64,000 bases of DNA from Candidatus Acetothermia bacterium (GCA_022684035.1 JAJHSB010000062.1:6054-70053); one strand, 5' to 3'; numbered from the stretch's first letter, positions 17,332 through 56,099 are shown. Program-made: numbers and translations. The notes: a model not told the origin generated them from the sequence alone.

Positions 17332-17463
17332 TAACAAAGCTCAGACTGAAGTTCCCCGGGACTTACACAATCGAATGATTCCCCTAACAAACTCGAGGGT
17401 TCTTTTAGATTATAGCTTTTCTGTTTGAGATTTTGGTGATTGGAATTTGTGATTTCAAATCCT

Positions 17464-18012
17464 TTAAGCCATTGCACTTATCTCCCGCTCTCCCTGAGTA
17501 ATGAACTCGCGTAGCCAATCGCGCACTGTTGGATGTGATATAGGTACATCACCCAGCTCGGTACGAATCTCGGCTGTATCAAACTCAAACCGGCGATCGT
17601 TCACCGTGTGGAGATAGTGCAGATCAACCTGGCTCTCTGACAGCAGCACGGTGAGTAGGCTGCTACAAATATCTCCAATTGGCGCGCGGTCAATATGACT
17701 ATGCTGAAAGACAACCTGAAGCTTGGTCCCTTTGCCCAATTCGGACTCAAGCGTAAGACTACCGCTACACTGCTCAGCGGCAGCAGCAAAGAGAGGCAAT
17801 CCCAGACCAACATGGCGAGTCCTGCGGGTGGTATAAAAAGGATCCACTGCTCTCTTCACTCTCTCTTTATCCATTCCTCGCCCGTTATCTTCAACGATAA
17901 TAGTCAACCGGTCAGCGATCATATCTTCGCTAATCGTTAGTTTTATCCGCGATGCCCCTGCCTCGACAGAGTTTTGCAGAACATCAAGGATATGCAGAGA
18001 GAGTTCACGCAT
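17464..18012 (-). CDS. GHKL/HATPase_c-only ATP-binding protein (anti-sigma/HfsC-like kinase module)
   Basis: N-, G1- and G2-boxes of a histidine-kinase-like ATPase (DNGRGM...GLGLPL) with no sensor or HisKA domain. Confidence 0.7.
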   Translation of the reverse strand: MRELSLHILDVLQNSVEAGASRIKLTISEDMIADRLTIIVEDNGRGMDKERVKRAVDPFYTTRRTRHVGLGLPLFAAAAEQCSGSLTLESELGKGTKLQVVFQHSHIDRAPIGDICSSLLTVLLSESQVDLHYLHTVNDRRFEFDTAEIRTELGDVPISHPTVRDWLREFITQGEREISAMA

Positions 18013-18078
18013 TAGCCAGCTCGCGCACTACCACTAACATACATTCCAGCACCAGATGGTCATTGATCTTAGAGTCCA

Positions 18079-18255
18079 CTATGGTTGCTGGCACCAGTCC
18101 CCATATCTTAAGAATGCAGCCAGCCGCAAATATCTGGCGCTTTCTGACGAACAGGGATCACCGCTCCTTCTTCCCTTTTCTCCTCCGCCGAGAATCTCGT
18201 GTAATGGAGTCAAATCCAGAGCTTCTTGCTCAACTAAGACTTTGCCTTCAGTCAT
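18079..18255 (-). CDS. hypothetical 58-aa protein with strong RBS
   Basis: GAAGGAGGT sits 6 nt upstream of ATG. The product MTEGKVLVEQEALDLTPLHEILGGG... matches no family I recognise. Confidence 0.3.
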   Translation of the reverse strand: MTEGKVLVEQEALDLTPLHEILGGGEKGRRSGDPCSSESARYLRLAAFLRYGDWCQQP

Positions 18256-18317
18256 TGCTGTACCTCCTTCTCGTTCTTATCTTATACTAAACGCACTGGA
18301 GAATTGGTTAAGTTTAT

Positions 18318-18468
18318 CAAATCCTAAGCAAAAACAAATCCTAAATTCTAAGCACCAAATTCCAAACAAATTCAAAATCCGAATGTTCAAAACGTTTTGC
18401 ATTTTGAGTTTTGGTCATTTGGATTTGTTTAGGATTTAGAATTTAGGATTTAGGATTTCGTGCTTCGA
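18318..18468. repeat. MITE-like inverted-repeat element, family 2
   Basis: Arm aaatcctaaattctaagcaccaaattccaaacaaattc pairs with arm ttgagttttggtcatttggatttgtttaggatttagaatttaggatttaggattt. Confidence 0.7.
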
Positions 18469-18501
18469 GTTTCTCCTTAAATTTGCAAATCTGGAGTTCG
18501 C

Positions 18502-19242
18502 TCAGTATATCTCTACCCAACGGCCATCCTCCCCCCGCATTGCCAACACCAACTCAGCCACCGTCGGTGCGGCTATCTTAAAGATTGTCCGCGCCACCAT
18601 CTCGCTTAAACGATGGGCATCGCCACTGGAGACCATGGTAAACCCCCTGATCTGCGGAAATCGCTGGCGTACCTCTGACTCCTGACTGGAGCAAAGAATC
18701 TCCACCGCGGGTAGATCGAGATCCGGTGGTACAAATCCCAGGTTGGCGAGCAGACTGAAAGATGGCCGGTCCACATGGGCTGGTAAAGCCAACCCACCTA
18801 AGTCCTGTACCATCGCCACGACCATCTCCAGTGACATATCCGTCGAGGTCGCAAGAAGCCGTTCGTTGCGGCGTATATATTCACCACTGGCGTCAACGAC
18901 GAACTGGGCACCAAAATGATCCTCGTTATTCTTAAGATTAGGCAGGTGATTAAATACCTCCATCTGCCAGACTAATGCCTGCTGCGCTGTGTCGAAAAGA
19001 GTTACCACGTGCACTTCCTCGCGGGTTTGCACCTCAATGCCTGGTAAAACAGTGATCCCACTTCCCTGAGCAGCCTCGATCACCGCGGCCACATTCTCGG
19101 CGGAATTATGATCCGTAATCCCAATCAGTCCCAAACCCAACTCACGCGCCCGGCGAATGATGAGCGGTGGTATCATCTCCACTTCGGCACAAGGACTGAG
19201 CACCGTGTGGATGTGTAAATCTGCAAGCACATACTGGAACAT
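18502..19242 (-). CDS. PHP (polymerase/histidinol-phosphatase) domain protein, HfsA-like
   Basis: PHP metal-binding motifs LHIHTVLS...ITDHN. Confidence 0.8.
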   Translation of the reverse strand: MFQYVLADLHIHTVLSPCAEVEMIPPLIIRRARELGLGLIGITDHNSAENVAAVIEAAQGSGITVLPGIEVQTREEVHVVTLFDTAQQALVWQMEVFNHLPNLKNNEDHFGAQFVVDASGEYIRRNERLLATSTDMSLEMVVAMVQDLGGLALPAHVDRPSFSLLANLGFVPPDLDLPAVEILCSSQESEVRQRFPQIRGFTMVSSGDAHRLSEMVARTIFKIAAPTVAELVLAMRGEDGRWVEIY

Positions 19243-19255
19243 TCCGTAGTCTGAC

Positions 19256-19627
19256 TCAGTCAGTGCCCTGAATGCCCAACGCCGCCAGCTTACTGACCAC
19301 CGTGAACGTGGGGAGCGGCGTAGTCAGAATCGGAATATGCTCCTCATTGGCCTTCTCAATTGTTGCTTCTTCCAGCCTGCTTCCCTCGGTAATGATGATG
19401 CCGGTTAAGTTAAGTAGAGAGGCCACGGCTACAATGTTGACGTGGGCTTGCAAGGTTACCCAGATGTTGCCCGCTTGCGCCTTGGCCATCACGCAACTGA
19501 GTAAATCCGAGGCATATCCACCGGTGATCGTTTGGTCAAGAGTATCGCTTGCGGAAGCGACCCCCAGGTTCAAGGAGCTAACCACTTCCCGAAGTTTCAT
19601 TTCGCCCTCCCGGTCCATCTTTGCCAT
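19256..19627 (-). CDS. DRTGG domain protein
   Basis: A DRTGG fold of about 120 aa, commonly paired with CBS domains and GHKL ATPases. Confidence 0.7.
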   Translation of the reverse strand: MAKMDREGEMKLREVVSSLNLGVASASDTLDQTITGGYASDLLSCVMAKAQAGNIWVTLQAHVNIVAVASLLNLTGIIITEGSRLEEATIEKANEEHIPILTTPLPTFTVVSKLAALGIQGTD

Positions 19628-19643
19628 CGTAATAGTTTAGTTT

Positions 19644-19900
19644 TCCTAAATCTTTTACTTATTCACCAAATCCTAACTCCTAAACTCTAAATTCTAAATC
19701 CTAAATTCTAAATCCTAAATTCTAAACAAATTTAAATGTTCCAAATCCAAATAACCAAAACTATGTTTTTCTACTTTCTGCATTTTTCTATTATTATTTC
19801 TCTTGCAAACTCCTCTGTTCTTCTCTCTAAATCATAAAGTTTTGAATTTTGGTCATTTGAGTTTTGAGTTTGTTTGGAGTTTAGAGTTTCGGATTTAGAC
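19644..19900. repeat. MITE-like inverted-repeat element, family 2 (larger copy)
   Basis: A tandem 14-mer (taaattctaaatcc)x3 arm, an AT-rich centre, then the inverse arm ttttgaattttggtcatttgagttttgagtttgtttggagtttagagtttcggatttag. Confidence 0.7.
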
Positions 19901-19943
19901 TTTTCCATAATTATTCCCTCTTCTTCTCAGAAAGACTGAACTG

Positions 19944-20867
19944 TTACTTGCCATCTGGCTGTAAATATATGATAATTTGCAGCCTCGTCCCCCCGCCGAG
20001 CGTTGACTGTAGGTCCATCTTGTCAGCGCACTTCTGAATGTTATTTAAGCCGACTCCCGCACCAAAGCCCATCTCCCGCGCCCACTCTGACGCGGTAGAG
20101 AAACCAGGTTGCATAGCTTGTGCAATATCGGCGATGCCCGGTCCGTCGTCCAATGCCACTATCCGTACTCTTTCGGGATTGATCTCAGCCATGATCTCCC
20201 CGCCGCGGTCGGTGTGAATGATAATATTTATCTCCGCCTCGTAGACGGCGATAGCAACACGACGGGTGATCTGCGGATTGCCACCTAAGCGAGTCAGCGC
20301 TCGCTTGATCTTGCTGGACGCTTCTCCACCCCGATCGAAGTCTCTCGGACGCACATCGTAGCGCAGCAGCAGGCTGGTGTGGTCAGAGATAATGTCCTCA
20401 AAGATATGGCTGGCGCGATAGCGGCTGATCTCCTCCGCATGATAGTCCTTCTCAATCGCCTTAAGTAGACCATGCGTGATGTCCCCCCGCGTGATGATGC
20501 CGACTAAATTGCCATCTTCGTTCACCACCGGCAGCCGCCCCACTCCCGTCTTTGAGAAGATCTTGACCGCCGCGATCGCTGATTCGTGAGTCGAGATAGT
20601 ATATACATCGCGGGTCATCCGGTCGCTGACTGGTGATTCCATGTCTCCCTCCGAGAGAGACTTGATCAGGTCTTCCAGGCTGATTATGCCTACCATTCGG
20701 CCATTCTCCACCACCGGTGTGCCCGAGATCCTATTTATGCGTAGCTGTTCCCGCAGCTCGGCCATTGAAGTATCAGGAGTAACAGTAACAATCCTCTTGG
20801 TCATCACCTGCTCGATCTTCAGTTCATAGATTAACTCTTGAACCCTGGTGATCTCGACGCGCTTCAC
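19944..20867 (-). CDS. CBS-pair + GHKL ATPase fusion protein
   Basis: Two CBS domains (N-terminal half) followed by an HATPase_c domain (IHTDRGGEIMAE...DDGPGI...GFGAGVGL). Confidence 0.75.
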   Translation of the reverse strand: MKRVEITRVQELIYELKIEQVMTKRIVTVTPDTSMAELREQLRINRISGTPVVENGRMVGIISLEDLIKSLSEGDMESPVSDRMTRDVYTISTHESAIAAVKIFSKTGVGRLPVVNEDGNLVGIITRGDITHGLLKAIEKDYHAEEISRYRASHIFEDIISDHTSLLLRYDVRPRDFDRGGEASSKIKRALTRLGGNPQITRRVAIAVYEAEINIIIHTDRGGEIMAEINPERVRIVALDDGPGIADIAQAMQPGFSTASEWAREMGFGAGVGLNNIQKCADKMDLQSTLGGGTRLQIIIYLQPDGK

Positions 20868-20935
20868 TATATGCTGTCTCTCCTCTTCTCTCTGGGAGAT
20901 ATGATAAGGGGTGATTTAGATCATTCACCTCATCG

Positions 20936-21286
20936 TTATACGTCACAGCTATTCATCCCAGCCTGAAACAAACAGCCGCATGCTTTGAACATAGTGGATT
21001 TGGTAGTAACTAACGGAATGCCTTTTTCCTCGGCGAGGAGAATGGTCTCCAGCGGGGGACGCTTACCACGAACAAAGACGATGGCCACGATCTCGGCCAT
21101 CTCCGCTGTTCGTACCACCTGTGGGTTTGTCAACCCAGTCAGCAGCACTGCCCCTGATCTGGCATGAGTCAAAACATCGCTCATTAAGTCTGCTCCACAC
21201 GCACTGGAGATGTCCATGTCTAAATCAGCGTTCGCAGTAATAAGCGCGCCATCTACAATCGAGATGACCTCACTCAACTTCATCAT
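20936..21286 (-). CDS. DRTGG domain protein (second copy)
   Basis: DRTGG-like sequence after MMKLSEV. The ORF-track extension to 21355 runs into the MITE fragment. Confidence 0.65.
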   Translation of the reverse strand: MMKLSEVISIVDGALITANADLDMDISSACGADLMSDVLTHARSGAVLLTGLTNPQVVRTAEMAEIVAIVFVRGKRPPLETILLAEEKGIPLVTTKSTMFKACGCLFQAGMNSCDV

Positions 21287-21293
21287 CCCCTCC

Positions 21294-21345
21294 CCTAACC
21301 CGGACAAGCCGGAAATTCCAATGACCAAATCCCAATAACGAAAAT
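21294..21345. repeat. family-1 MITE terminal fragment
   Basis: cccggacaagccggaaattccaatgaccaaatcccaataac matches the family-1 MITE terminus. Confidence 0.6.
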
Positions 21346-21523
21346 TAAATATCAAAGTTTAAATATCAAAATTACATATAAAAATACAAAAATTATTTCC
21401 CCAAACCCCTATACTTCCAATCATTGTTCAACTGATAACGTCGACTTGTTCTTGAGCTTATCATCTCTCACAGAGGTTGTCAAGGAATATCTTTGTTCCG
21501 AGCGATCTTTCTCCTGAAAGAAA

Positions 21524-34490: not shown

Positions 34491-36533
34491 TCAGTCTTTG
34501 ACGCACGAGATACTTTGTAAAGATAGCTGCGCCAACTTCTTCACCACCATCTCCTCAAAGATCGCTGGAAGGCGCTCTTCGGTCACTCCTTCAAGTATTT
34601 GTCCATCAATAACTGCTGATGGTCCACGATCGCATTGCTCAAGACAGAAAGTGGCTTGCACGTTGACGCGATCGGATAGTCCCTGCTTTTCAATCAAGGC
34701 TGCCAATTCTTGTATCACACCATAAGACCCTCGCAGATAGCAACTAGTGCCGACACAAACCTGGATCTCCATCGTAGGCCGCTCAGCGGCTACAACTGGG
34801 ATGAATTGTTCAAATACGCGCCGGCGTGAGGCGTAGGTAGTATGCAAGGCGTGGTGGGCAACATCGCTTCCTGGCTCCTTCAGCCATTGCTGGTAAAGTT
34901 CGCTAATGAATGGATTATCCTGTACTGTTCGTATCTGCTTCAGCCGGTCTGCTGCTCGCATACCTCCTGCTCGCTGCTGCCGGACCTGGATATTGTTGAT
35001 TAGGGGTTGTCCACCGCCAGCGACACATCCTCCTGGGCAGGCCATTACCTCCACCAGATGGTATGAGAGTTCTCCCGCGCGCAGGGCAGCGATCAACTTC
35101 TTGGCTGCCCCCAAAGTGTGTACCGTAGCGATGCGAATTACCCTGTTACCTACGGGTACGATAGCCTCATTCACATTGGGGAATCCCTCCACCGGAGTAA
35201 AGGCAAAATCAACCGGCGGCCTTTTCCCGGACAACTTATAGATCGCGGTTCGTATTACTGCCGTGCTCACTCCGCTGAAGACGCCGAAGATGGTGCCCGC
35301 ACCGCTAGCAAATCCAAATGGCAAATCGAAGGAGTCATCTTCAAGTTCCGCAAAGACGATTCCCATCTCGCGAATCATCCGCGCCAGTTCGTGAGTGGAA
35401 ATAACGGCGTCGACATCAGGACTTCCCTCTGTAGTGAGTTCCGGCCGCCTGGCCTCAAACTTCTTGGCTGTGCAGGGCATCACCGAAACCACAAAGATAT
35501 CCTGTGGGGAGAGCCCTTGTTCTTTGGCATAGAACTTCTTGAGCAGTGAGCCGAGCATCTGTTGGGGAGAACGGCAAGTTGAGAGTTGAGGCAGAAGATC
35601 AGAGTGGAAGTGTTCAGCATACTTTACCCACGCTGGACAGCAACTGGTAAATTGCGGTAGATGCTCCCCTGTTTCGAGATGATGCAAGAATTCGGTCGTT
35701 TCCTCCATCGTTGTCAAATCAGCAGCAAAAGAGGTATCGTAAATCTCGTGAAATCCCAGCCGACGCAGAGCAGCGACCATCTTACCGGTACTGATTGTGC
35801 CTGCTTTCTCCCCGAACTCTTCGCCCAGGGCGACGCGCACCGCCGGGGCTGTCTGAACGATCACTCGCTTATGTGGGTCGCTTAGAGCTGCCCAGACAGC
35901 ATCAATCTCGAATTTTATCGTCAGCGCAGCAGTAGGACAGGCCTGGATACACTGACCGCATCCCACACATTCCCCCTCAGCCAGAGATTTATTGAATGCC
36001 GGTATTACTTGTACTGCCGCACCCCGGTAGGCAAAGTCCAGCACTCCGATTCCTTGAATCTCGGAACAGTTGCGCACGCAGTTCCCACACAGCACGCACT
36101 TATTCGGATCGCGTACCAGGCTAGGGCTCGATGTGTCGCGCGGCAGTGGTTCTCGATCTTTACCAAAGCGAATATTGCCAATGCCGAAGCGGAGTGTTAA
36201 TTCCTGCAGCCGGCACTGGCCGCTCTTCTCACAGATAGTGCAATCACGATCGTGATCAGCGAGGAGCAGCTCCAGAATGGTGCGGCGCATTCGTTGCAAA
36301 CGAGGAGTAGTGGTGCGAATGACCATTCCGTCGGCTGGCGGGGTGGAGCAGGAAGCAATAAAGCCCAGTTTTTCTTCCTCTACTATACACATGCGGCATG
36401 CTCCGAAGTCCGATAACTCGAAGTGGTAACAGAAGGCCGGGAGATCCACACCGGCTTTGCGAACTAGCTCCAGGATGTTTGTTTCTCCATCGATGGGTAA
36501 GACTTTTTTGTCAATCGTGATTGTACCACTCAC
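34491..36533 (-). CDS. hydA: [FeFe]-hydrogenase catalytic subunit HydA (group A3, Thermotoga-type, with C-terminal thioredoxin-like 2Fe-2S domain)
   Basis: N-terminal 2Fe-2S and 4Fe-4S ferredoxin domains. H-cluster motifs L1 TSCCPAWV, L2 MPCTAKKFE and L3 EVMACPGGC. C-terminal NuoE-like CVGTSCY...CLEQCDRGP. GTG start with a GGAGGT RBS. Confidence 0.9.
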   Translation of the reverse strand: MSGTITIDKKVLPIDGETNILELVRKAGVDLPAFCYHFELSDFGACRMCIVEEEKLGFIASCSTPPADGMVIRTTTPRLQRMRRTILELLLADHDRDCTICEKSGQCRLQELTLRFGIGNIRFGKDREPLPRDTSSPSLVRDPNKCVLCGNCVRNCSEIQGIGVLDFAYRGAAVQVIPAFNKSLAEGECVGCGQCIQACPTAALTIKFEIDAVWAALSDPHKRVIVQTAPAVRVALGEEFGEKAGTISTGKMVAALRRLGFHEIYDTSFAADLTTMEETTEFLHHLETGEHLPQFTSCCPAWVKYAEHFHSDLLPQLSTCRSPQQMLGSLLKKFYAKEQGLSPQDIFVVSVMPCTAKKFEARRPELTTEGSPDVDAVISTHELARMIREMGIVFAELEDDSFDLPFGFASGAGTIFGVFSGVSTAVIRTAIYKLSGKRPPVDFAFTPVEGFPNVNEAIVPVGNRVIRIATVHTLGAAKKLIAALRAGELSYHLVEVMACPGGCVAGGGQPLINNIQVRQQRAGGMRAADRLKQIRTVQDNPFISELYQQWLKEPGSDVAHHALHTTYASRRRVFEQFIPVVAAERPTMEIQVCVGTSCYLRGSYGVIQELAALIEKQGLSDRVNVQATFCLEQCDRGPSAVIDGQILEGVTEERLPAIFEEMVVKKLAQLSLQSISCVKD

Positions 36534-36587
36534 TTTTTACCTCCGATGATAAAATTAACCACGAATATACGCGAATTGACACGAATG

Positions 36588-36986
36588 TTATAAAACTATT
36601 CTTTCATATTCTAACTTCGGTCTTGCAAAATTTATTATTATTCCTAACTTTAACCCAGTTGCTTTAAGATAATTTATTACTTGAGCACGGTGAATATCAG
36701 TAATCTTCTCAACACACTTCATCTCTAAAATTATTTCATCCTCTACAAGTATATCAGCAAAATATTCGCCGACTATTTCTCCCTCAAAATGCACTTTGAG
36801 CGGTGCTTGCTGAACTACCTTCATCCCATTTTTATTCAATTTTATTATTACTGCATTTTCATACACTTTCTCTAAAAATCCTGCTCCAAGAGTATTATGC
36901 ACCTCCATTACTGCGCCTATCACTTTATAGGAAAGTTCTTTATGCAGTATTTTTTCGTGTTCATTAGTGTTCATTCGTGGTTTCAT
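36588..36986 (-). CDS. GxxExxY family protein (PD-(D/E)XK-like) inserted between hydB and hydA
   Basis: The family signature reads GAGFLEKVYENA; 132 aa. Its first 11 codons are encoded by a 30-bp repeat that also occurs intact directly after the hydB stop. Confidence 0.8.
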   Translation of the reverse strand: MKPRMNTNEHEKILHKELSYKVIGAVMEVHNTLGAGFLEKVYENAVIIKLNKNGMKVVQQAPLKVHFEGEIVGEYFADILVEDEIILEMKCVEKITDIHRAQVINYLKATGLKLGIIINFARPKLEYERIVL

Positions 36987-37116
36987 TAGGTAATTCGGTA
37001 ATTCGGGGTCAGGTCTTGAATTTTAACATTTATCTTAAGCCACGAATTAACACGAAAAGTTATAAAACAAGCTCTTTATAAATAATTTCGTGTTCATTAG
37101 TGTTCATTCGTGGTTT
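36954..37116. repeat. duplicated intergenic segment flanking the GxxExxY gene
   Basis: The 30-mer ttcgtgttcattagtgttcattcgtggttt is identical at 36954-36983 and 37087-37116. cgaattNacacgaaNNgttataaaac is also present at 36572-36596 and 37043-37068. Confidence 0.85.
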
Positions 37117-37119
37117 TAT

Positions 37120-38943
37120 CTATTTAAGTCGTCCCGGAATGCATGTCACCGCGGCAAATCGCTCCGGGCATACACTCAAGCATATCCCACATCTGTTACA
37201 CTTATCCTGGTCTATAACGTGAACCTCTTTCTTACCACCTGTAATCGCTCCGATAGGGCACTTCCGCAGACAGATCATACAGGCTTTACATTTATCCGGC
37301 GCGATATAGTAAGAGATAAGCGGCGGGCACACCCTTGCGGGGCATTTTTGTTCACAGATATGAGCGATGTACTCATCATGGAAGTAGCGAAGCGTTGTGA
37401 GCACCGGGTTGGGAGCTGTTTTCCCCAGTTGACAGAGTGATCCATCCTTGACGGTAGTAGCTATTTCTTGTAGCAAATCGAGGTCCTCTTCCCGCCCATC
37501 TCCGCTGGTGATTCGGGTGAGAATCTCCAGCATCCGCTTCGTCCCCTCGCGACAGGGCACGCACTTACCACAGGATTCATTCTGGGTAAACTTCATAAAG
37601 TAGCGAGCTACCTCTACCATGCAATCATCCTCACTGAGAACTACCAGCCCGCCCGAACCCATGATCGCTCCTGCGGAGGTTAAAGATTCATAATCTATAC
37701 CATAATCCAGGTGTGTCGCCGGAAGGCATCCCCCAGAAGGGCCGCCTATTTGCACCGCCTTGAACTTTTTGCCGCCTTCTACACCTCCTCCGATATCAAA
37801 GATGATTTGGCGTATGGTGAGGCCAAATGGTATTTCGACCAATCCAGTGTTATTTACCTTTCCGGTCAAAGCGAAGGTCTTTGTCCCGGGATTAGTAGGT
37901 GTACCAAAGCTGCGAAACCAATCCGCCCCGTTTAATATGATTCCTGGTACATGGCCTAAAGTCTCGACGTTATTGATGACTGTCGGATTACCCCGCAGCC
38001 CTGAAGTTGCCGGAAAAGGAGGTCGCTGCCGTGGCATTCCACGTCTGCCTTCCATGGCAGCAATCATCGCCGTCTCTTCGCCGCAGACAAAGGCACCTGC
38101 CCCTTCCATGATATCGATCTGACAGGAGAAATCGCTTCCGAGAATCCCATCGCCAATCAAACTATATCCTTGGGCATCATCTATCGCCTGCTGCAAGCGC
38201 TTTACGGCGAGTGGGTACTCAGCTCGTACGTAATAAATATATCCCTGCCGAGCTCCAATCGCATAGGCGGCAATCAGCATTCCCTCTAATACCCGATGGG
38301 GATCGCCCTCAAGTAAGCTGCGGTTCATAAATGCCCCTGGATCACCCTCATCACCGTTACAGACCACATACTTCACCTCTCCGGGAGCGCGGTAAGCAAA
38401 CTCCCACTTCCGCCCAGTGGGGAACCCGGCACCGCCACGGCCGCGCAGGATTGAGCGTTTGATCTCTTCAATAACATCTTCCGGGTTCATTTCAAAGAGG
38501 GCTTTACCGAGAGCCTCATATCCACCCCGAGCGATATACTCCTCGATGTTCTCCGGATTAATCACACCGCAGTTGCCGAGAACAATACGCTGCTGCTTGG
38601 CGTAGAAGGGCATCTCGCTGTAGTGCGGCAAGGCCTGATGAGAGATCGGTTCTTTATAGGTAAGGGCTTCCACCACCCGACCTTTCACAAAGGTCTCCTC
38701 CACCAGATGAGGGATGTCTTTCTCCTGAACACGGCAGTAAAGAATTCCCTCGGGATAGATGATCACCAACGGGCCCATTTCGCAGAGCCCGTGACAACCG
38801 GTGAAAATTACCCGCACCTCATCTTCAAGGCCGCGGCGTGCAATCTCTACCTTCAGGAGATTGAATATCTTGTCCGCACCGGAGGCAACACATCCGGTAC
38901 CTCTACATACCAGGGCATTTGCTCGATAAAAAGCTTCAGTCAT
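37120..38943 (-). CDS. hydB: [FeFe]-hydrogenase beta subunit HydB (NuoF-like NADH/FMN-binding flavoprotein with 2Fe-2S and 2x4Fe-4S)
   Basis: NuoF motifs (GRGGAGFPTG, C-x2-C-x2-C-x3-CP pairs). Start reset to ATG 38943, which has an AAGGAGGT RBS; the ORF-track extension to 38988 runs into the MITE. Confidence 0.9.
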   Translation of the reverse strand: MTEAFYRANALVCRGTGCVASGADKIFNLLKVEIARRGLEDEVRVIFTGCHGLCEMGPLVIIYPEGILYCRVQEKDIPHLVEETFVKGRVVEALTYKEPISHQALPHYSEMPFYAKQQRIVLGNCGVINPENIEEYIARGGYEALGKALFEMNPEDVIEEIKRSILRGRGGAGFPTGRKWEFAYRAPGEVKYVVCNGDEGDPGAFMNRSLLEGDPHRVLEGMLIAAYAIGARQGYIYYVRAEYPLAVKRLQQAIDDAQGYSLIGDGILGSDFSCQIDIMEGAGAFVCGEETAMIAAMEGRRGMPRQRPPFPATSGLRGNPTVINNVETLGHVPGIILNGADWFRSFGTPTNPGTKTFALTGKVNNTGLVEIPFGLTIRQIIFDIGGGVEGGKKFKAVQIGGPSGGCLPATHLDYGIDYESLTSAGAIMGSGGLVVLSEDDCMVEVARYFMKFTQNESCGKCVPCREGTKRMLEILTRITSGDGREEDLDLLQEIATTVKDGSLCQLGKTAPNPVLTTLRYFHDEYIAHICEQKCPARVCPPLISYYIAPDKCKACMICLRKCPIGAITGGKKEVHVIDQDKCNRCGICLSVCPERFAAVTCIPGRLK

Positions 38944-38956
38944 CAGATTACCTCCT

Positions 38957-39200
38957 TCCCCGGACAAGCCGGAAATCCCAATAACCAAATCTCAATTTCC
39001 AAACAATAATCAAATTTCAATAATCAAACTTCTATTGCGATTTGTCGATAATCGAGGAGAAGACTCCGGCCTTTCTGTTTGAGATTTTGGTCATTGGTCA
39101 TTGAGCTTTGTTTGGAAATTGGTGCTTGGAATTTGTGATTTCAACTCCTTGCCATTCCCCGCCTTCGCGAGGACAAGTTTGCGTCAGATTTCAGATTTTG
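38957..39200. repeat. family-1 MITE-like element, about 245 bp, complete, inside the hyd operon
   Basis: Left arm ccggacaagccggaaatcccaataaccaaatctcaatttccaaacaataatcaaa. Right arm tttgagattttggtcattggtcattgagctttgtttggaaattggtgcttggaatttgtgatttcaa. About 90% identical, as reverse complement, to 55611-55865. Confidence 0.85.
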
Positions 39201-39215
39201 GGGACTTATAGATGA

Positions 39216-39590
39216 TCAGTCTCGTTCCACTCGGCCAAACGCCCATTCCTGGACCACGTTGCCCTTGACCAGATGCTCCTCGATCAGGCGAGAGACCATA
39301 TCGGGATGGACATTTCCATAGGTGATCCGCGGGTGACCGGCCTGTTCGATATCTACCAGTGGCTCCTTGTAGCACATTCCAATACAGCCCACAGTAGTCA
39401 CATGAGCATCGATCTCTCGCCGACGCAGCTCCTCCAGAATGGCGAGCATCGTCTCCCGTGCGCCGGCAGCGATCCCGCAGGTTCCCATACCCACGGTGAT
39501 CGTCGTTCCCGTTTTCAGCCGTACTTTAATATTCTTCTGAGCTTCTTCTCGGATTCGCTTCAGATCCTCCAAACTTTTCATCCGGGGCAT
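39216..39590 (-). CDS. thioredoxin-like [2Fe-2S] ferredoxin (NuoE-like fold) of the hydrogenase cluster
   Basis: CGIAAG...CIGMC cysteine pattern. ATG 39590 with an AAGGAGGA RBS. Confidence 0.8.
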   Translation of the reverse strand: MPRMKSLEDLKRIREEAQKNIKVRLKTGTTITVGMGTCGIAAGARETMLAILEELRRREIDAHVTTVGCIGMCYKEPLVDIEQAGHPRITYGNVHPDMVSRLIEEHLVKGNVVQEWAFGRVERD

Positions 39591-39647
39591 TCTCAAATCC
39601 TCCTTCCCTACTTCAATTTCTTTCCATTTCGCGCACGACTTTAGATT

Positions 39648-39890
39648 TTAGACCTTAAGCCCTTCCTTAAAATTCATTACATCAACGGTAACGCGGGAAA
39701 AGGGCTTTCCCTCTCTTTGAACCATGCTCTCCATTTCCTTATAAACTTCAGAGCTGAAGAACTTCTCGCCACACTGTTGACATACCTTTGCCGGAACATC
39801 CTCAAAAATAACCAGCTTCTCACCCTACCAGAAATCTACATTGACCTCCTCTTTCACCTTCCCCCCACAGAAATAGCACTTAGTTAACAT
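39648..39890 (-). pseudogene. YgiT-type zinc-finger (MqsA-like) antitoxin with in-frame TAG at codon 22
   Basis: MLTKCYFCGG...DFW*GEKLVIFEDVPAKVCQQCGEKFF shows the two CxxC pairs of the YgiT zinc finger. The in-frame amber codon sits at 39825-39827 and the frame stays open to 39648. The start is 3 nt after the DUF4258 stop. Confidence 0.6.
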
Positions 39891-39892
39891 TT

Positions 39893-40195
39893 CTATCTTC
39901 TCCTTGTTCTTAAATCCTCTTCCCATTCGGCGGGCTGTGGTTCGTACGCTATTATAATCTCCTCTTCTGCTTTACCGCAAACCACATGTAACGGTCTTCC
40001 TTCGTGAGTGAAGCCCAGGATCAGACAACTTGGTCCTCTATGATCACGTGGATAATCCTCGATTATCTCGCCTTTAGAAATAGCTTCTTCAATCTCCCGA
40101 ACGCCTATCCTTCTCCTTCGAATCTTTTCAGTATGTGTAAACGACCCATGATACTTCCCCTCTTTAACCTTCTGCCTAATTTCGTTTAAAGTCAC
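39893..40195 (-). CDS. DUF4258 protein (putative toxin of a DUF4258/YgiT-ZnF pair)
   Basis: The motifs GEIIEDYPRDHRGPSCLILGF...GRPLHVVCG...IIIAYEPQPAEWEEDLRTRRR match the DUF4258 consensus. GTG start. Confidence 0.8.
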   Translation of the reverse strand: MTLNEIRQKVKEGKYHGSFTHTEKIRRRRIGVREIEEAISKGEIIEDYPRDHRGPSCLILGFTHEGRPLHVVCGKAEEEIIIAYEPQPAEWEEDLRTRRR

Positions 40196-40276
40196 TCTCG
40201 ACCCCCTTTACGCACTTAAGAACCTTATGCCCAATGATGAAGTCAAATACTACATAGGGTTCTCATTGCAATCCTC

Positions 40277-40396
40277 CTAACCCGAACAAGCCGGAAATCC
40301 CAATGACCAAATCTCAAATTCCAAACAATAATCAAATTCCAATAACCAATCCCTGCCTTCGGCTCGTGGCTCGTGGCTCGTGGCTCGTGGCTCGAA
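40277..40396. repeat. family-1 MITE half-element plus (GGCTCGT)x5 heptamer array
   Basis: cccgaacaagccggaaatcccaatgaccaaatctcaaattccaaacaataatcaaattccaataaccaa followed by ggctcgtggctcgtggctcgtggctcgtggctcg. Confidence 0.8.
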
Positions 40397-40451
40397 GGAT
40401 TTGATTAAAGACCTTTTCCTCCAGCCTCCAGCCACCAGTCACCAGCTACTT

Positions 40452-40982
40452 TCAACTTTCCTTGCGACTGGCCAGCGTGTCGATAATAGTTACCGCCGCA
40501 TCCGGACTCATGTGAGCGTGTACCTGGCCGTTGATTGTCATTACCGGCGCCAGAGCGCAGCATCCAACACAAGCGACTGTCTCTAAGGTAAAGAGCATAT
40601 CTGAGGTGGTCGAGTCTCCCTCTTTGAGGTCATACTTACGGCAAATAGCGTCATAGATAGACATAGAGCGCTTGACGTGACAGGCTGTGCCATCGCATAC
40701 AGTCACCAAATAACGACCTTTGGGCTTAAGTGAGAACTGGGCGAAGAAAGTGGCCACCCCAAAGACAGTAGCTGGGGAAAGATCCAGTGCAGTAGCGATG
40801 TAGGTAAGAACCTCCTCAGGTAGGTAGCGATACTCTTCCTGCACCGCCTGCAAAATGGAGATCAGAGACTGATTGCGGCTAGTTTGCTCGGCGATTATCT
40901 CGTTCAAGCGGAAAAACCGGCGGCGCCTCCTGTCTCCATCTGGGGAGACTCGTATTTGCTGTTTACCCTGCTCAGTGCTCAT
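40452..40982 (-). CDS. hydC: [FeFe]-hydrogenase gamma subunit HydC (NuoE-like 2Fe-2S)
   Basis: CDGTACH...CVGCCALAP motif of the NuoE family. Confidence 0.9.
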   Translation of the reverse strand: MSTEQGKQQIRVSPDGDRRRRRFFRLNEIIAEQTSRNQSLISILQAVQEEYRYLPEEVLTYIATALDLSPATVFGVATFFAQFSLKPKGRYLVTVCDGTACHVKRSMSIYDAICRKYDLKEGDSTTSDMLFTLETVACVGCCALAPVMTINGQVHAHMSPDAAVTIIDTLASRKES

Positions 40983-41038: not shown

Positions 41039-41151
41039 ACCAGCACCGAGCCTAAGTCAGTTTAGCTTAAAGTAGTTTCATCTGCAAGTTTACCCCTCTT
41101 CTCATCTTTCTGATTTTCTGCTGCGCTGGCAGTGAACCTGACATTTAGTAC

Positions 41152-41385
41152 CTAAATTCTGAAGTTTTGCGCAAAATGGCAAGGAATTGAAATCTCAAAT
41201 CCCAAGCACCAATTTCCAAACAAAGCTCAATGACCAATGACCAAAATCTCAGACAGAAAAGCCAGAGTATTTTTCTCGCTTAGGGACAAATTGCTCATAG
41301 AAGTTTGGTTATTGGGATTTGGTTATTGTTTGGAAATTGAGATTTGGTCATTGGGATTTCCAGCTTGTCCGGTTTAGGGACAGAA
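41152..41385. repeat. family-1 MITE-like element (complete copy)
   Basis: ctaaattctgaagttttgcgcaaaatgg...aatgaccaatgaccaaaatctca [about 50-bp core] tttggttattgggatttggttattgtttggaaattgagatttggtcattgggatttccagcttgtccgg. Confidence 0.85.
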
Positions 41386-41475
41386 CAAACTTTGTCGATT
41401 ACCGAACAAAAAATAGCCGGTCTGGACTTACGTGATCGCAATCCAGCCCGGCTATAAAGAGTTATCTTTTATCGT

Positions 41476-42520: not shown

Positions 42521-45500
42521 TTACTTACGAAAGACCGTGCCACGGAAGGTGTAGATTATAGCACCATCGCGCAACACAGCAACGAAGATATACGGCCCTT
42601 TAGCAAGTAGAACGCCGGCTTCATCCCGACCGTCCCAGACGACTTCCTCTCCAGGACCGACATCGTGCGCTATGATATCCCGTACCTCACGTCCGAGCAT
42701 ATTGAAGATCCTTATGGTAAACGTCTCGGCAACACCGACTCCTTTAAAGGAGAAGCGCGACCCCCGCTCATGGACGACGATGAACTCGTCAATCTCGAGG
42801 GGTGGTGGTACCACTACTACTGGTTTGACAGTGATCGTTACCGTAGTTATATCTGATATGCCGCCACGGTCATCCAGCGCACGGTAGGTAAAAGTAACGA
42901 TGCCGTGCCACCCAGCAGGCGGCGTAAAGGTGAAGGAGCCGTCAGGACGCAGATCCAACACGCCGTGGACAGGTGCTGTTACCAGTTGCGCTCGCAGTGG
43001 GTCATTATCCGGGTCAGTGTCATTTGCCAGTACTCCTGGCGCAGGAACAGTGAGAACCGTGTCCATAAGGACTGGATAGGTATCAGCTACTGCGACTGGC
43101 GGACGGTTGACGACTGCCACGACTCGTGTGGCGATCAATGCCGCATCACCAGGATCAGATGGATCCTGGAAAAAGGCGAGGATCGTATCACCGGTCCGTG
43201 CCCCAAGGTGCTCTACAAGTCTAATCGGCGTAACGCTGCGGAAAAGCCCGCTGCCAATCTCGGTCTCCCAGAGCACTACCCGCACCCTCACATTTGTGCG
43301 TGAGTTGAAGACTTCAATTAGTATTGAAGGGTGTTCTACCTCTGGAACTGAAACGAGCGATTCACGTCGGTAATTATCTTCGTTCTGATCCGGGTCATAG
43401 ACCTCGATAAAGGCCGCTTCAGCGATCGTATAGCCGATGACCGGCACGCCGGCAGCATCGACAAATCGCATATTGAGACGACCGGTTTTACCATCAAAGA
43501 CCAGTGTGCGACTGACTTCCATCTCCGCGAATGCGACCCGGTAATGAGCATACCAGTAGGTGATCCGCTCGGGTTCAGCAGGATAACTTGCAACCTCTAC
43601 CGCGTTAAACTGGACAATCACTGCACTCCGATTGAACGTCTCAAGGTCCTTATTACCCAGATCGAACGGAGCCCATGGAGGTTCAGCGATGCCACCAGCC
43701 CATACCACTGGATAGAGACCCAGACCGGTTCGAGCGCGAAAGATCGGTGCGTTGACTCCAACCTCATCGAGGATGATCCATTCCCGGTCAGTAGATTGAG
43801 GGCTAAATATCTGCACCACGACCGCGTCGCGTGCTCGACGGTTGCGATTGAGAGGAGAGTACATTACCTCAACATTGATCCGGTCACGACCGAGGTCAAA
43901 TTCCTCTGGGCGAGTCCAATCTGCGGCAGCAAAGTAAATTTGAGGACTTACCACCGGCGTGCGTATTGCATATGCAGTGTCAAACGCCACATCACTGAAG
44001 TCATTCGGATCAACGTAAAACGCAGCAAGGACATATTCTACCCGCAGGCGCGTAAATCCGAGCGCTCTCTGAATATCGATAAGCCTGAGCTCAAATATAC
44101 CGGTATTGGCACCTGTCTCCTGAGCAAAGAAGACGATGCGAGTTAGTCCGGGTCCGGCCGGATCTCCGGGGAGCGGAGCACCGGCAACATTTAGTGTGTC
44201 AAAGCCATACCCACGCCCTTCGTTATTGATAAGACGCATAGGTTCACCAGGCCGAGCCATATCGACAACATAGACGATAAAGCGATCCGGATCATAGATA
44301 TTGTACCAGCGGATCGGTTCGCCGCGACAGACCCAGCTCTTTATCGGGGGAGGCACATCAGGCGCAGTGACAGTGATCGTTACCGTTGCCGGTCCTGATA
44401 CACCGCCTCTAACATCTCTTGCGTGGTAGGTAAAGGTGACGATGCCGAAGAACCTGACCGGCGGCGTGAAGGTAAAGGAGCCGTCAGGACGCAGATCCAA
44501 CACGCCATGGGCAGGTCTTTCTACCAGCACTGCGCTCAGTGGGGCAGCAACCGGAGCCACGGTGTCATTTGCCAGTACTCCTAGCGCAGGAACAGTGAGA
44601 ATTTCCCCCCATGGTATAGTATAAGTATTAGGGAGCGCGACCGGCGGAGTAAATCCAAGGGGATGAGCAACAGTGATTGTTACCGTTGTCTCTGGTATTG
44701 TAACCAATCCTGATACGCCGCCTGTAGAATCTACTGCGCGGTAGGTAAAGGTGACGATACCGAAGAACCCGCGTGGTGGGCTAAAGGTAAAGGAGCCGTC
44801 AGGACGCAGATCCAACACGCCGTGGGATACCGGACGTACCAGCACTGCTCTCAGTGGGAAGTTACCGTCCGGGTCAGTGTCATTTGCCAGTACTCCTGGT
44901 ACTCCTGGTACTCCTGCAGTGAGAACCAGGTCCATAGGGACTGTATAGAAGAGATCAGCTACTGCGACTGGCAACAGAAAGCCGGCACGCAGAACAGTGA
45001 TCGATACCGTTGCCGGTTCTGATACACCGCCTCTAATATCTTCTTCTGCGCGGTAGGTAAAGGTGACAACACCGTGAAAGTCGGGCGGTGGCGTGAAGGT
45101 AAAGGAACCGTCAGGACGCAGATCCAACACGCCGTGGCATACCGGACGTACCAGCACTGCTCTCAGTGGGGCACCATCCGGAGCCACGATGTCATTTGCC
45201 AGTACTCCTGCTGGCAGCGCAGCAACGCGGAGAATTCCCCTCCATTGTATTGTATAAGTATTAGGGAGCGCGACCGGCGGAGTCTGGAGTGCCGGATCCA
45301 CAGAGATTCCTTCTACTCCGCCTGATTCAAACAACATCTGGAAATTTGTGGCGCTTCGCCCTCGCGCGGCAGGAAATTGAATTGGCTCAGGACCAGCAGC
45401 AGATATCTCAACTGGATTCCACGACCCTGGATTGACGATGATAAATATTGGTACCTCTTCTACTTCCATCGGGTCCAGGTTCTCATCAGGATCAGTAATC

Positions 45501-53606: not shown

Positions 53607-53896
53607 TTATTTATTAAAAGATAATGATACATTCTATATAAAATCTATCTTCCATGTTTTCTGCTTCTTTTTAATTCTTACTGTGTCGCCACTAAAATGA
53701 AGTATCCACTTGACTTTTGCAAAGAGATATATATAATTAATTTAATGTCTATGTTGTTGTGGGCAACTTGGCGAGACAGTTGTACAACTCTTCTTTGCCT
53801 GCTGCTCGGCAACTGAAAAGAAAATCGACAATAGCAAGAGGTGGTCGGTCGAGTAAGTTGATTATAGATTAATCATAGTTAAAATAGACGTTAAAA

Positions 53897-54340
53897 GCCA
53901 GATAAACCTAACGGAGGTAAATGCGATGACCGGAAAAAAGGACATCAAAAAGCCAGATAAGCCTAATGTCGGCAAGAGCGATGCCCAGAAAAAAGGGCCA
54001 GCAAAAAGATAGATAAACCTAATGGAGGTAAATGCGATGACCGGAAAAAAGGACATCAAAAAGCCAGATAAGCCTAACGGCGGCAAGAGCGATGCCCAGA
54101 AAAAAGGGCCACAAAAAGCTAGATAAGTATAGCTAACGTAGGAGCGATGCCCAGAAAAAAGGGCAAAAACAAAAGAACAGATAACAATAGCGGAGGTAAG
54201 AGCGATGGCCGAAAAAAAGGGCAGCAAAAAGCCAGATAAGTCTAGCCAACGTAAGAGCGATGCCCAGAAAAAAGGGCAAAAACAAAAGAACAGATAACAA
54301 TAGCGGAGGTAAGAGCGATGGCCGAAAAAAAGGGCAAAAA
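53897..54340. repeat. tandem array (about 8 units of 50-60 bp) duplicating the RBS, start codon and first codons of the downstream beta-CA gene
   Basis: Units follow the form gccagataaRcctaaYgg(a/c)gg(t/c)aa(a/g)Ngcgatg(a/c/g)ccNgaaaaaaggNc...aaaaa. Each unit carries GGAGGTAA-N-GCGATG and short Lys-rich ORFs (for example MTGKKDIKKPDKPNVGKSDAQKKGPAKR*). The last unit is the real gene start at 54318. Confidence 0.85.
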
Positions 54341-55373: not shown

Positions 55374-55610
55374 TATCAATGCGTTTACCAAAGTAGGGCA
55401 GTCCGAAGAGACCGTCCGGTAGCTGTACAAGTAGAAGTAGGGGCGATCTGCACACCGCCCCTACTTTTTATTAGATAGAGCTTGTCTAAAAACTCCAATG
55501 ACGATTTCCTATGGAAGCAGCAGTTTTTAGACAGCCTCAATAGATAGAGGTGTTTGACACCATAAGAATTTCAAAGTGCAGAATAAAGTAGATAGACTAG
55601 ACTATTAGGG

Positions 55611-55920
55611 TCTAAAATCTAAAGTCTTGCGCAAACTTGTCCTCGCGAAGGCGGGGAATGGAAAGAAGTTAAACTCACAAATTCCAAGCACCAATTTCCA
55701 AACAAATCTCAATGACCAATGACCAAAATCTCAAACAGAAAGGCCGGAGTCTTTTCCTCGATTGTCGACAAATCGCTCATAGAAGTTTGGTTATTAGGAT
55801 TTGGTTATTGTTTGGAAATTGAGATTTGGTCATTGGGATTTCCGGCTTGTCCGGGTTAGGGGCAAAACAAACTCTGTAGGATTAAGCAACGGGATTGCTT
55901 CGCAGACTCACAATGACAAA
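55611..55920. repeat. family-1 MITE-like element (complete) plus 'gcaatgac' tail, 5' of the tRNA cluster
   Basis: ggtctaaaatctaaagtcttgcgcaaa ... aatgaccaatgaccaaaatctcaaacag [core] tttggttattaggatttggttattgtttggaaattgagatttggtcattgggatttccggcttgtccgggttagg, then gggattgcttcgcagactcacaatgac. Confidence 0.85.
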
Positions 55921-55988: not shown

Positions 55989-56060
55989 GCGGGAGTAGCT
56001 CAGTGGTAGAGCACTGCCTTGCCAAGGCAGACGTCGCGGGTTCGAATCCCGTTTCCCGCT
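55989..56060 (+). tRNA. tRNA-Gly (GCC)
   Basis: GCGGGAGTAGCTCAGTGGTAGAGCACTGCCTTGCCAAGGCAG...TTCGAATCCCGTTTCCCGCT, with anticodon loop ttGCCaa. Confidence 0.85.
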
Positions 56061-56099
56061 TAGCCTCGTTAATCGATATTACGTTAGCGTACTACGATC

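Follow-up and report, generated by a model that had tools for sequence, protein, structure and literature searches.

Genes of the Cluster

The stretch analyzed here, called the window below, comprises 64,000 nt of one strand of a Candidatus Acetothermia bacterium genome (GCA_022684035.1, JAJHSB010000062.1:6054-70053) and carries a minus-strand cluster of genes for a CBS-domain kinase-like protein, two DRTGG proteins, a PHP-family phosphoesterase, and a stand-alone GHKL ATPase, together with a [FeFe]-hydrogenase locus (hydCBA). A preliminary description, made from the sequence alone, had listed six genes in the cluster. Six minus-strand open reading frames (ORFs) were indeed called at these places; five of them are intact genes, the sixth (a 58-aa ORF) is a relic, and the start of the last gene lies at 21286. 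Comparison with related loci showed that the cluster is one copy of a widespread module of soluble-hydrogenase operons with a NuoE/NuoF NAD(P)H-diaphorase, and that it was stranded here by rearrangement, NuoE being a dead relic and HydD having moved into hydCBA. The features are listed in Table 1.

Table 1. Features of the cluster and of the hydrogenase locus, with positions counted from the first letter of the window.
Feature	Position	Strand	Description
Repeat arm	17415–17455	−	Right after the GHKL ATPase stop; repeat family D15, inverted repeats I22 and I23
Stand-alone GHKL ATPase	17464–18012	−	182 aa, without DHp/H-box
NuoE-like [2Fe-2S] subunit pseudogene relic	18017–18255	−	Covers the "58-aa ORF" (18079–18255)
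MITE-like palindromic insertion	18256–18501	−	Gap between PHP and NuoE relic; repeat families D4 and D5
PHP-family metal-dependent phosphoesterase	18502–19242	−	246 aa
DRTGGb	19256–19627	−	123 aa, DRTGG-domain protein
MITE-like palindromic insertion	19628–19943	−	Gap between the CBS-kinase gene and DRTGGb; repeat families D4 and D5
CBS-kinase	19944–20867	−	307 aa, CBS pair and predicted SpoIIAB-like GHKL domain; central element of the module
DRTGGa	20936–21286	−	116 aa, DRTGG-domain protein; first gene of the module
hydC, (repeat and DUF4258/zinc-ribbon cassette), hydD, (repeat), hydB, (PDDEXK_3 gene), hydA	34491–40982	−	Group-A3-type [FeFe]-hydrogenase locus
HydD/HndB-like thioredoxin-type [2Fe-2S] protein	39216–39590	−	Between HydC and HydB

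The domain calls of the preliminary description (HATPase_c, PHP, DRTGG, and CBS with HATPase_c) survived profile searches with Pfam, the second DRTGG protein falling just under the threshold. The central protein, CBS-kinase, contains two CBS domains (3e-32, 111 bits) together with HATPase_c and HATPase_c_2 (PF13581, 1.3e-7), and its residues 204–299 match the NCBIfam model spIIAB (9.5e-13, below the equivalog cut-off). In the AlphaFold2 (AF2) model (mean pLDDT 76), the CBS half (pLDDT 85–96) superposes on CBS pairs solved with AMP, ADP, ATP, or Ap4A (AcuB and CBSX), and the tandem CBS domains form a Bateman module according to both Pfam and the model. The top Foldseek match of the modeled C-terminal half was SpoIIAB (1TIL; TM 0.84, 2.4 Å). 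The invariant boxes are N (E210, N214, and H218), G1 (D240-x-G-P-G-I), and G2 (G-F-G-A-G-x-G-L), and the kinase half is predicted to be a SpoIIAB-like Ser/Thr-kinase-type GHKL domain. The most conserved stretch of the protein is an invariant linker of about 25 residues (142–164, window about 20376–20444; Y142...H154-I-F-x-D...T164), with Y142, E146, Y150, R151, A152, H154, I155, F156, and D158 as conserved residues.

More than 6000 homologues of CBS-kinase were found in a collection clustered at 90%, the nearest of which (60–86% identity) are labelled Dehalococcoidia or Anaerolineae. The architectures of the kinase domain were searched among 1.84 billion cluster representatives, which gave 120 matches at E ≤ 1e-30, and the best 150 listed were examined. 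Among these 150, besides the full-length family, the same kinase domain (45–55% identity) occurs alone in proteins of about 140–170 aa, in C-terminal fusion to 4Fe-4S, Fe_hyd_lg_C, and PF04060 domains in HydS-like proteins of 435–599 aa, and in N-terminal fusion to a DRTGGa-type domain (P0464, P0487, P0496, and P0497). The last proteins match the DRTGGa profile at 1e-26 to 1e-38, one of them passes the Pfam DRTGG threshold, and they keep an L-x-S-D-[VI]-L motif. The linker 142–164 is absent from the DRTGG-kinase and kinase-HydS fusions. Since the same kinase domain is fused to each of them, the CBS, DRTGG, and HydS-like parts are putative input modules of one kinase, either alternative to one another or cooperating.

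The two DRTGG proteins are paralogues (30% identical, E 5e-15). DRTGGb passes the Pfam DRTGG threshold (1e-7, 32.1 bits) and matches Hpr_kinase_N more weakly (1.6e-4), and NCBIfam PRK14869 models match both DRTGGb and CBS-kinase. For DRTGGa, searched as ORF 20936–21355, the score was 24.2 bits against a cut-off of 25.2 (PF07085), and its orthologues in relatives pass. Invariant positions are D-L-M-S-D (D33–D37) in DRTGGa and Y38, D41, L43, S44, W56, T58, Q60, H62, and N64 in DRTGGb. The TTG codon at 21355 was rejected as the start of DRTGGa, lying inside a repeat copy (21291–21367). From the ribosome-binding site GGGGAGGGG and the length of homologues (114–127 aa), the start was assigned to the ATG at 21286. 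The PHP protein matches PF02811 (3.2e-9, 37.8 bits). Its metal-ligand positions H10, H12, D44, H45, E70, H156, D208, and H210 are all present and at least 95% conserved in 70 orthologues, with the HxH, DH, E, H, and DxH motifs complete. The nearest characterized relatives, over the N-terminal 80–90 residues only, are RNase AM, 3',5'-bisphosphonucleotide (pAp) phosphatases, and TrlF.

The stand-alone GHKL ATPase matches Pfam HATPase_c (1.4e-17), and the nearest NCBIfam models are histidine-kinase catalytic domains, far under their equivalog cut-offs. The boxes of the CA domain are conserved (N14, D42xGxG, D57-P-F, and G69-L-G), and the G3 box is followed by a family-specific motif, F102-x3-H106-x-D108-x2-P-x-G. 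The length is within the family range (178–232 aa), only the variable tail being different. In the AF2 model (pLDDT 88, pTM 0.86), the fold is closest to the N-terminal domain of MutL and to MutL/GyrB/Hsp90-type ATPases, and a DHp domain and H-box are lacking. The assignment as a histidine kinase was rejected on these grounds, and "histidine kinase" is a misnomer. HisKA/DHp was found in neither GHKL protein of the cluster by Pfam or in the AF2 models, which have no helical hairpin. Unlike a two-component sensor histidine kinase, the ATPase thus combines the CA boxes with no DHp/HisKA domain and with no response regulator gene in the neighborhoods inspected. Compared with GHL-type ATPases (MutL N-terminal domain, GyrB, and Topo VI-B), its sequence is instead closest to the CA domains of histidine kinases, it carries the family-specific motif, and it has no transducer, DNA-binding, or dimerization domains.

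The Module in Other Genomes

Relatives of CBS-kinase were collected with one genome per species (at least 597 species), and 80 loci were kept for comparison. They span Chloroflexota, Desulfobacterota, Planctomycetota, TA06, Cloacimonadota, Fidelibacterota, Bipolaricaulota, Hydrogenedentota, Spirochaetota, Gemmatimonadota, and Acidobacteriota. Seventeen reference proteins were mapped onto all loci by tblastn, and gene frequencies were taken from a well-flanked subset of 44 loci from ten or more phyla, in which the sequence extends at least 3.5 kb upstream of the kinase gene and 6 kb or more downstream of it. DRTGGa was present in 43 of the 44 loci, DRTGGb in 42, PHP in 41, and the GHKL ATPase in 39. 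The genes for HydD, NuoE-like, and NuoF-like proteins were found in 40 loci each, HoxH-like in 24, and HydA in a single one. A NuoE, NuoF, or hydrogenase gene lies within 10 kb in 43 loci, so the link of this domain set to hydrogenases, already proposed in the preliminary description, holds. Its assignment to trimeric [FeFe]-hydrogenase operons was right only as to hydrogenases in general, since the enzymes next to the module are mostly of the Hox-type [NiFe] class. In these loci, the constant partner of the module is thus the NuoE/HydD/NuoF diaphorase and not one class of hydrogenase.

The distance from the kinase gene to the nearest NuoF-like gene has a median of 2.8 kb and a maximum of 5.5 kb in the 44 loci. 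The window, with 16.2 kb, is an outlier, and the cluster is indeed displaced, as had been suggested. Its HydD and nearest NuoF-like genes are 16–21 kb away, and only the NuoE relic is adjacent.

Two fixed gene orders recur across Chloroflexota, Planctomycetota, Cloacimonadota, Bipolaricaulota, Desulfobacterota, and other phyla. In type I (37 of the 80 loci, mostly Chloroflexota), the order is DRTGGa, CBS-kinase, DRTGGb, PHP, NuoE, GHKL ATPase, HydD, NuoF (or a NuoF/GltD fusion), NuoG-like, HoxY, and HoxH. In type II (20/80; Planctomycetota, Cloacimonadota, Bipolaricaulota, and others), NuoE, HydD, and NuoF precede DRTGGa, CBS-kinase, DRTGGb, PHP, and the GHKL ATPase. Downstream of the module come a protein of about 1090 aa that joins a NuoG-type N-terminus to HdrA-like flavin domains, and then the small and large [NiFe] subunits. 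Type Ib loci lack the GHKL ATPase and keep the rest. In the locus L065, DRTGGa, CBS-kinase, DRTGGb, and PHP stand by themselves, surrounded by housekeeping genes, as a second stand-alone module. The gene order of the window, on one strand, is type I, with identities of 78–85% to the loci L001 and L005.

The closest relatives show the module beside complete hydrogenase operons. In two Dehalococcoidia single-cell genomes (L001 and L007; 80–93% protein identity to the window), HydB, HydA, HydG, and HydE are followed by the module and then by NuoE, GHKL ATPase, HydD, NuoF/GltD, NuoG-like, HoxY, and HoxH. In L088, Rex, a small ferredoxin, a HydS-like protein, PP2C, HydC, HydB, HydA, HydF, HydG, and HydE precede the module. 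The Joint Genome Institute (JGI) contig Ga0484004_000207, which contains both L005 and L087, carries the module with the Hox operon first and the set from Rex to HydA second. In L087 (5662–9528) and L088 (6154–9983), Rex, an 86-aa thioredoxin-like ferredoxin, a sensory [FeFe] hydrogenase of the HydS-like kind that carries PF04060, and the phosphatase PP2C stand directly upstream of hydCBA. As to taxonomy, the NCBI proteins identical to those of the window (P0121 and P0241) are labelled Candidatus Acetothermia bacterium, and the nearest relatives of every module and hydrogenase gene are labelled Dehalococcoidia.

The preliminary description had read the cluster as a probable Hfs-like regulator of hydCBA that was merely displaced. 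HydA ends 13.2 kb from the cluster, in agreement with the distance of about 13 kb given there, and hydCBA is the only hydrogenase in the window and now holds HydD from the operon of the module. The module also lies just downstream of hydBA and hydFGE in L001, L007, and L088, and its genes directly precede a [FeFe] hydrogenase in L083 and in Halanaerobium (PMC4237134). On the other hand, the module of the closest relatives directly adjoins the [NiFe] operon from NuoE to HoxYH, runs in the same direction, and forms its head, whereas hydCBA has the separate Rex/ferredoxin/HydS/PP2C set, so hydCBA is not obviously the native target; HydA is, moreover, far rarer near the module than HoxH-like genes. 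The label "Hfs-like" conflates these two modules. The tblastn search of the window confirmed the stated lack of a HydS-like protein and PP2C: the HydS of L088 matched only HydA, at 25% identity, and PP2C had no match. A role of the module as the regulator of hydCBA is regarded as possible but doubtful.

A parallel in Firmicutes had also been drawn. In Halanaerobium hydrogeniformans, the genes Halsa_1862–1871 encode an anti-sigma-type kinase, an Fe-S protein, an Fe-S hydrogenase-like protein, PHP, NuoE, a "histidine kinase", a ferredoxin, NuoF, and HydA (PMC4237134). This supports the parallel for PHP and its neighbors, and no paper was found that places DRTGG there. The Halanaerobium operon shares with the module operons the core order of PHP, NuoE, "histidine kinase"-like ATPase, small ferredoxin (HydD), NuoF, and hydrogenase, and likewise has the gene of an anti-sigma-type Ser/Thr kinase upstream. 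It differs in that the kinase is accompanied there by Fe-S and hydrogenase-like (sensory) proteins and here by a CBS pair and DRTGG proteins, and the copy in the window has lost the NuoE-HydD-NuoF part.

A classical two-component or anti-sigma circuit controlling the expression of hydrogenase genes would agree with the names "histidine kinase" and "anti-sigma regulatory factor" given by annotation pipelines and with the term "histidine kinase-linked" used for group C1 in HydDB (PMC5037454). The GHKL proteins of the cluster, however, have no HisKA/DHp domain and no H-box, and no response regulator, sigma factor, STAS, or conserved DNA-binding protein gene was found in the inspected neighborhood gene tables. 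Such a circuit is considered highly improbable.

Relic, Repeats, and Rearrangement

In the relatives, a 156–162-aa NuoE-like [2Fe-2S] gene sits between PHP and the GHKL ATPase, and the latter is translationally coupled between NuoE and HydD, the NuoE stop overlapping the ATPase start. In the window, tblastn with the NuoE of L001 found three collinear pieces in different frames (18255..18017). Residues 1–30 correspond to 18255–18172 (70% identity), residues 28–48 to 18173–18111 in another frame (76%), and residues 134–161 to 18100–18017 (50%); residues 49–133, about 85 codons with the cluster-binding cysteines and the Fe-S region, are deleted. Pfam found nothing in the 58-aa ORF. It was thus rejected as a real small gene and is the 5' remnant of a NuoE-like gene disrupted by a frameshift and a deletion, and the "strong RBS" noted for it is the old NuoE ribosome-binding site.

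The gaps on both sides of the PHP-DRTGGb pair (Table 1) contain divergent members (63–94% identical) of a palindromic AT-rich repeat family, with at least eight copies in the window. The copies are short, non-coding, and bounded by terminal inverted repeats, with 57-nt arms and ill-defined ends. DNA folding predicted long imperfect hairpins, with z-scores of −3.29 for 18256–18501 and −3.06 for 19628–19943. The two elements are insertions, since the matching genes of relatives, including the CBS-kinase/DRTGGb pair, overlap or are less than 35 nt apart. The earlier statement that the cluster is split by two miniature inverted-repeat transposable elements (MITEs) is fair, the elements being MITE-like. 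Pieces of the repeat also occur at both ends of the cluster (17415–17455 and 21291–21367), the first occupying the slot where HydD follows the GHKL ATPase in relatives; further copies lie at 38951–39211, 40273–40394, 41144–41402, 55602–55884, and 56600–56887. The insertion at 19628–19943 is present in independent assemblies, and the copy number of its 14-nt unit (19713–19726) differs between two assemblies of the same population. A 45-aa ORF in this repeat (19771–19908), considered as a possible gene fragment of the 23S-rRNA-IVS four-helix-bundle type, was dropped for lack of Pfam and tblastn support.

The layout of the window was seen in four independent assemblies (99.8–100% identity). The JGI contig Ga0484004_000287 corresponds to window 19586–50893 (100% and 99.86% identity), runs through the repeat to 19586, and has the order HydC, DUF4258, HydD, HydB, PDDEXK_3, HydA, 13 kb of housekeeping genes, DRTGGa, kinase, and repeat. 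JAJHSE010000083.1, Ga0484004_000863, and a Logan contig cover the rest, with the relic and with the junction to the convergent gene of CDP-alcohol phosphatidyltransferase. Misassembly at the repeats was rejected, every junction being reproduced by JGI, NCBI, and Logan contigs.

Since synonymous sites are expected to be saturated at 80% amino-acid identity, constraint was judged by departures from conserved sites and by polymorphism between assemblies. All residues that are at least 95% conserved in 65–80 orthologues are present in the five genes of the window, and departures from positions conserved at 90% or more number 0–1 per gene, as in relatives with intact operons. Over 8,249 nt, the window and another assembly of this population (L094) show five differences. 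Four of the five are in the 240-nt relic (three substitutions and a 1-nt indel causing the frameshift, which is missing from the L094 relic), and one is in the other 8 kb or so; the chance of this under a uniform spread is about 4e-6 by our estimate. The relic therefore evolves freely and its neighbors do not. In view of the few conserved-site departures and of this concentration of polymorphism, the five genes look still constrained at the sequence level.

These data bear on the alternative that the cluster is a non-functional leftover, its five genes decaying more slowly than NuoE after loss of the partner hydrogenase. NuoE is a pseudogene, HydD is relocated, three repeat insertions break an operon that is compact in relatives, and the window has no Hox, NuoF/GltD, Rex, HydS, PP2C, or HydEFG. 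Against a leftover stand the full length of the five ORFs, with conserved catalytic residues intact and departures no commoner than in intact relatives, the location of the polymorphism in the relic and not in the genes, and the existence of a second stand-alone module in L065. We consider a leftover unlikely.

HydA (34491–36533) and HydB (37120–38988) are supported by Pfam, and the hydCBA locus is interrupted by repeats, a toxin-antitoxin cassette, and a PDDEXK_3 gene. HydD, a fourth gene within it, is 93% identical to the HydD of L001, the highest identity of the genes compared. In the window it is found between HydC and HydB, whereas its place in relatives is after the GHKL ATPase; in L087 and L088, HydC is directly followed by HydB. 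Rex, HydE/F/G, NuoF/GltD, NuoG-like, and HoxYH were not found in the window. In place of the Rex/HydS/PP2C set, HydC has a repeat and an unknown gene of 322 aa upstream of it there. Between HydC and HydD (39650–40195, minus strand), there are a DUF4258 toxin-like gene (39893–40195, Pfam 5.6e-21) and a zinc-ribbon MqsA/YokU-like antitoxin-like ORF (about 39650–39890) with an in-frame stop and weak matches only; a repeat copy and a (GAGCCAC)n run (about 40365–40400) adjoin this cassette. A PD-(D/E)XK_3 gene (PF13366; 36588–36986, minus strand) separates HydB from HydA; in relatives these two genes overlap, with the start of HydA ahead of the HydB stop. In L087, a 23S_rRNA_IVP gene is found between PP2C and HydC. 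Small selfish-looking genes seem to colonize gaps in the hydCBA operon.

Homology of the DNA to L001 ends on the ATPase side at L001:10579 (window about 17479) and resumes on the HydD side at L001:10583 (window about 39606). Such abutting ends are consistent with a break of the ancestral ATPase|HydD junction, and L005 has a 116-nt repeat-like insert exactly at this junction. The N-terminal 150 or so residues of HydB (thioredoxin-like) are 85–94% identical to the N-terminus of NuoF/GltD in L001 and L005 and 24–45% identical to HydB of L088, and the rest of HydB is 82–95% identical to that of L088, a mosaic that suggests recombination between paralogous NuoF genes. A clean circular permutation by recombination of NuoF/GltD with HydB was rejected, because the unrearranged locus L087 has the same mosaic, so that the mosaic gives no date for the rearrangement.

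Several other features of the window were recorded. Repeat copies flank both sides of a tRNA cluster (55989–56541). Eight tandem units of 55–58 nt at 53890–54348 each contain a GGAGG...ATG signal and a Lys-rich mini-ORF, the unit length not being a multiple of three. A 1241-aa protein (42521–46246, minus strand) has four Big_9/cadherin-like repeats, and internal DNA repeats at 42826–45283 account for about one third of all differences found when 30452–50893 of the window is compared with the JGI contig. The Rfam scan of the window found tRNAs only, and a scan for consensus promoters and terminators was uninformative, its counts being not above those of shuffled sequence. PADLOC gave no meaningful match, and an anti-phage defence system was dropped as an explanation.

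Predicted Function of the Module

The kinase half shares the fold and the Pfam family PF13581 with SpoIIAB/RsbW. As with spoIIAA and rsbV, the gene of a small alpha/beta protein (about 115 aa) is directly upstream of the kinase gene, and a phosphoesterase gene is in the same operon. In contrast to SpoIIAB/RsbW, neither the cluster nor the module operons of relatives include STAS, sigma factor, or PP2C genes; the partners are DRTGG proteins, PHP serves as the phosphoesterase, the kinase carries a fused CBS pair, and the context is that of hydrogenase/diaphorase operons. The preliminary description saw in the cluster a candidate signaling system of the kinase type, and this remains the best reading of it.

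Group C1 hydrogenases have been named "histidine kinase-linked (putative)", and HATPase_c fusions have been noted (PMC5037454, PMC11406978, PMC8542988). The putative sensory [FeFe] hydrogenases of group C (HydS/Hfs; HydDB C1–C3) have kinase or phosphatase partners, and the kinase domain of the window protein is 45–55% identical to those of the HydS-like fusions described above. The window, however, has no sensor with an H-cluster domain, PAS domain, or PP2C. With a CBS pair as the sensor, a nucleotide is a likelier signal than H2.

The regulatory CBS-DRTGG-CBS insert of family II (CBS-) pyrophosphatases reportedly binds AMP/ADP and diadenosine polyphosphates (Tuominen et al. 2010). There, the CBS pair and DRTGG act as one unit, whereas in the module each is a polypeptide of its own, or else DRTGG replaces CBS as the part fused to the kinase, and the output is a kinase domain and not a pyrophosphatase.

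On this basis, the module is, with moderate confidence, a conserved adenine-nucleotide-sensing kinase/phosphoesterase switch for NuoEF-type hydrogenases, stranded in the window and still constrained, for which we infer the following mechanism. The CBS pair and the DRTGG proteins would bind adenine nucleotides, recreating in separate polypeptides the CBS-DRTGG unit of CBS-pyrophosphatases, and binding would gate the SpoIIAB-like kinase domain. The kinase would phosphorylate or sequester a small partner, the best candidate site being the invariant Ser of the DRTGG D-L-x-S motif; the DRTGG proteins or the diaphorase subunits may be phospho-acceptors or binding partners. PHP would reset the switch by removing the phosphate or hydrolyzing the nucleotide signal, and the GHKL ATPase, co-translated with NuoE and HydD in intact operons, would be an ATP-driven element contacting the diaphorase. 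The operons inspected encode no conserved DNA-binding protein; most likely, therefore, the module acts after translation and controls how electrons pass between NAD(P)H and H2. In this genome, it would have to do so in trans, plausibly on HydABC, which now holds HydD.

Several points weigh against such a switch. As a fusion partner of the kinase, DRTGG could be a sensor domain no less readily than a substrate, and the PHP protein is closest to nucleotide/RNA phosphoesterases, not to protein phosphatases. From its MutL-like fold, the GHKL ATPase may be a clamp or chaperone and not a signaling part. The linker 142–164 has pLDDT below 50 in the AF2 model despite its conservation; low values are as expected of a segment that would fold on a partner. 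In the window, the operon is split by three repeat insertions. As to the stranding, the break between the ATPase and HydD falls where the conserved coding sequence stops and where the HydD ribosome-binding site lies, so that the abutting homology is weaker evidence for a single break than it might seem. Solved structures were found for no close relative of any of the five proteins, and no biochemical or genetic study of any module member was found in the open-access literature, in which searches for functional work turned up genome descriptions only. Nor did that literature yield a paper on the DRTGG/CBS version or its Hox-type [NiFe] link, an absence that is no proof.

Alternatively, the module could be a device for assembly, repair, or quality control of the NuoE/NuoF/HydD diaphorase, the GHKL ATPase serving as a clamp or chaperone and PHP processing a nucleotide cofactor. 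This would account for the constancy of the diaphorase as a neighbor whatever the hydrogenase class, for the coupling of the ATPase, with its fold near those of MutL, GyrB, and Hsp90-type proteins, to NuoE and HydD, and for the likeness of PHP to nucleotide phosphoesterases. The central protein, however, is predicted to be a kinase of the SpoIIAB type that bears a CBS sensor; fusions of this kinase domain to HydS-like sensory hydrogenases in other proteins point to signaling; and type Ib loci keep the rest of the module without the GHKL ATPase. An assembly device is judged rather improbable.

A bolder version of the nucleotide-sensing switch would make the module a new class of partner-switching/kinase system, in which a phospho-Ser DRTGG protein (D-L-x-S-D) replaces STAS, PHP replaces PP2C, CBS reads adenylate or Ap4A, and the target is the NuoE/HydD/NuoF diaphorase in place of a sigma factor. 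This is a speculative proposal, in which we place little confidence.

In many anaerobes, the redox balance is set by soluble, NAD(P)H-linked hydrogenases and by electron-bifurcating ones. To our knowledge, almost nothing is known of the control of their activity beyond Rex and putative HydS sensors, and the "histidine kinase" and "PHP" genes of these operons were noted in genome papers and then ignored. The present comparison places them in a fixed five- to seven-gene module that is conserved across many phyla, tracks the NuoE/NuoF diaphorase and not a particular hydrogenase class, and appears to have at its core a SpoIIAB-like kinase with interchangeable CBS, DRTGG, or HydS-like sensor parts. 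It is the CBS/DRTGG-input, diaphorase-linked variant, found with both [NiFe] and [FeFe] enzymes, of a gene neighborhood that has been seen but never studied. The copy in the window is an ordinary degraded member and a natural dissection, in which four to five signaling genes were kept and the adjacent structural genes lost; it hints that the signaling genes can be kept without them. If the bolder version of the switch holds, it would directly turn H2 metabolism linked to NAD(P)H on and off, in at least ten phyla of bacteria and with [NiFe] and [FeFe] hydrogenases alike, and the stranded copy would show that it can act in trans.

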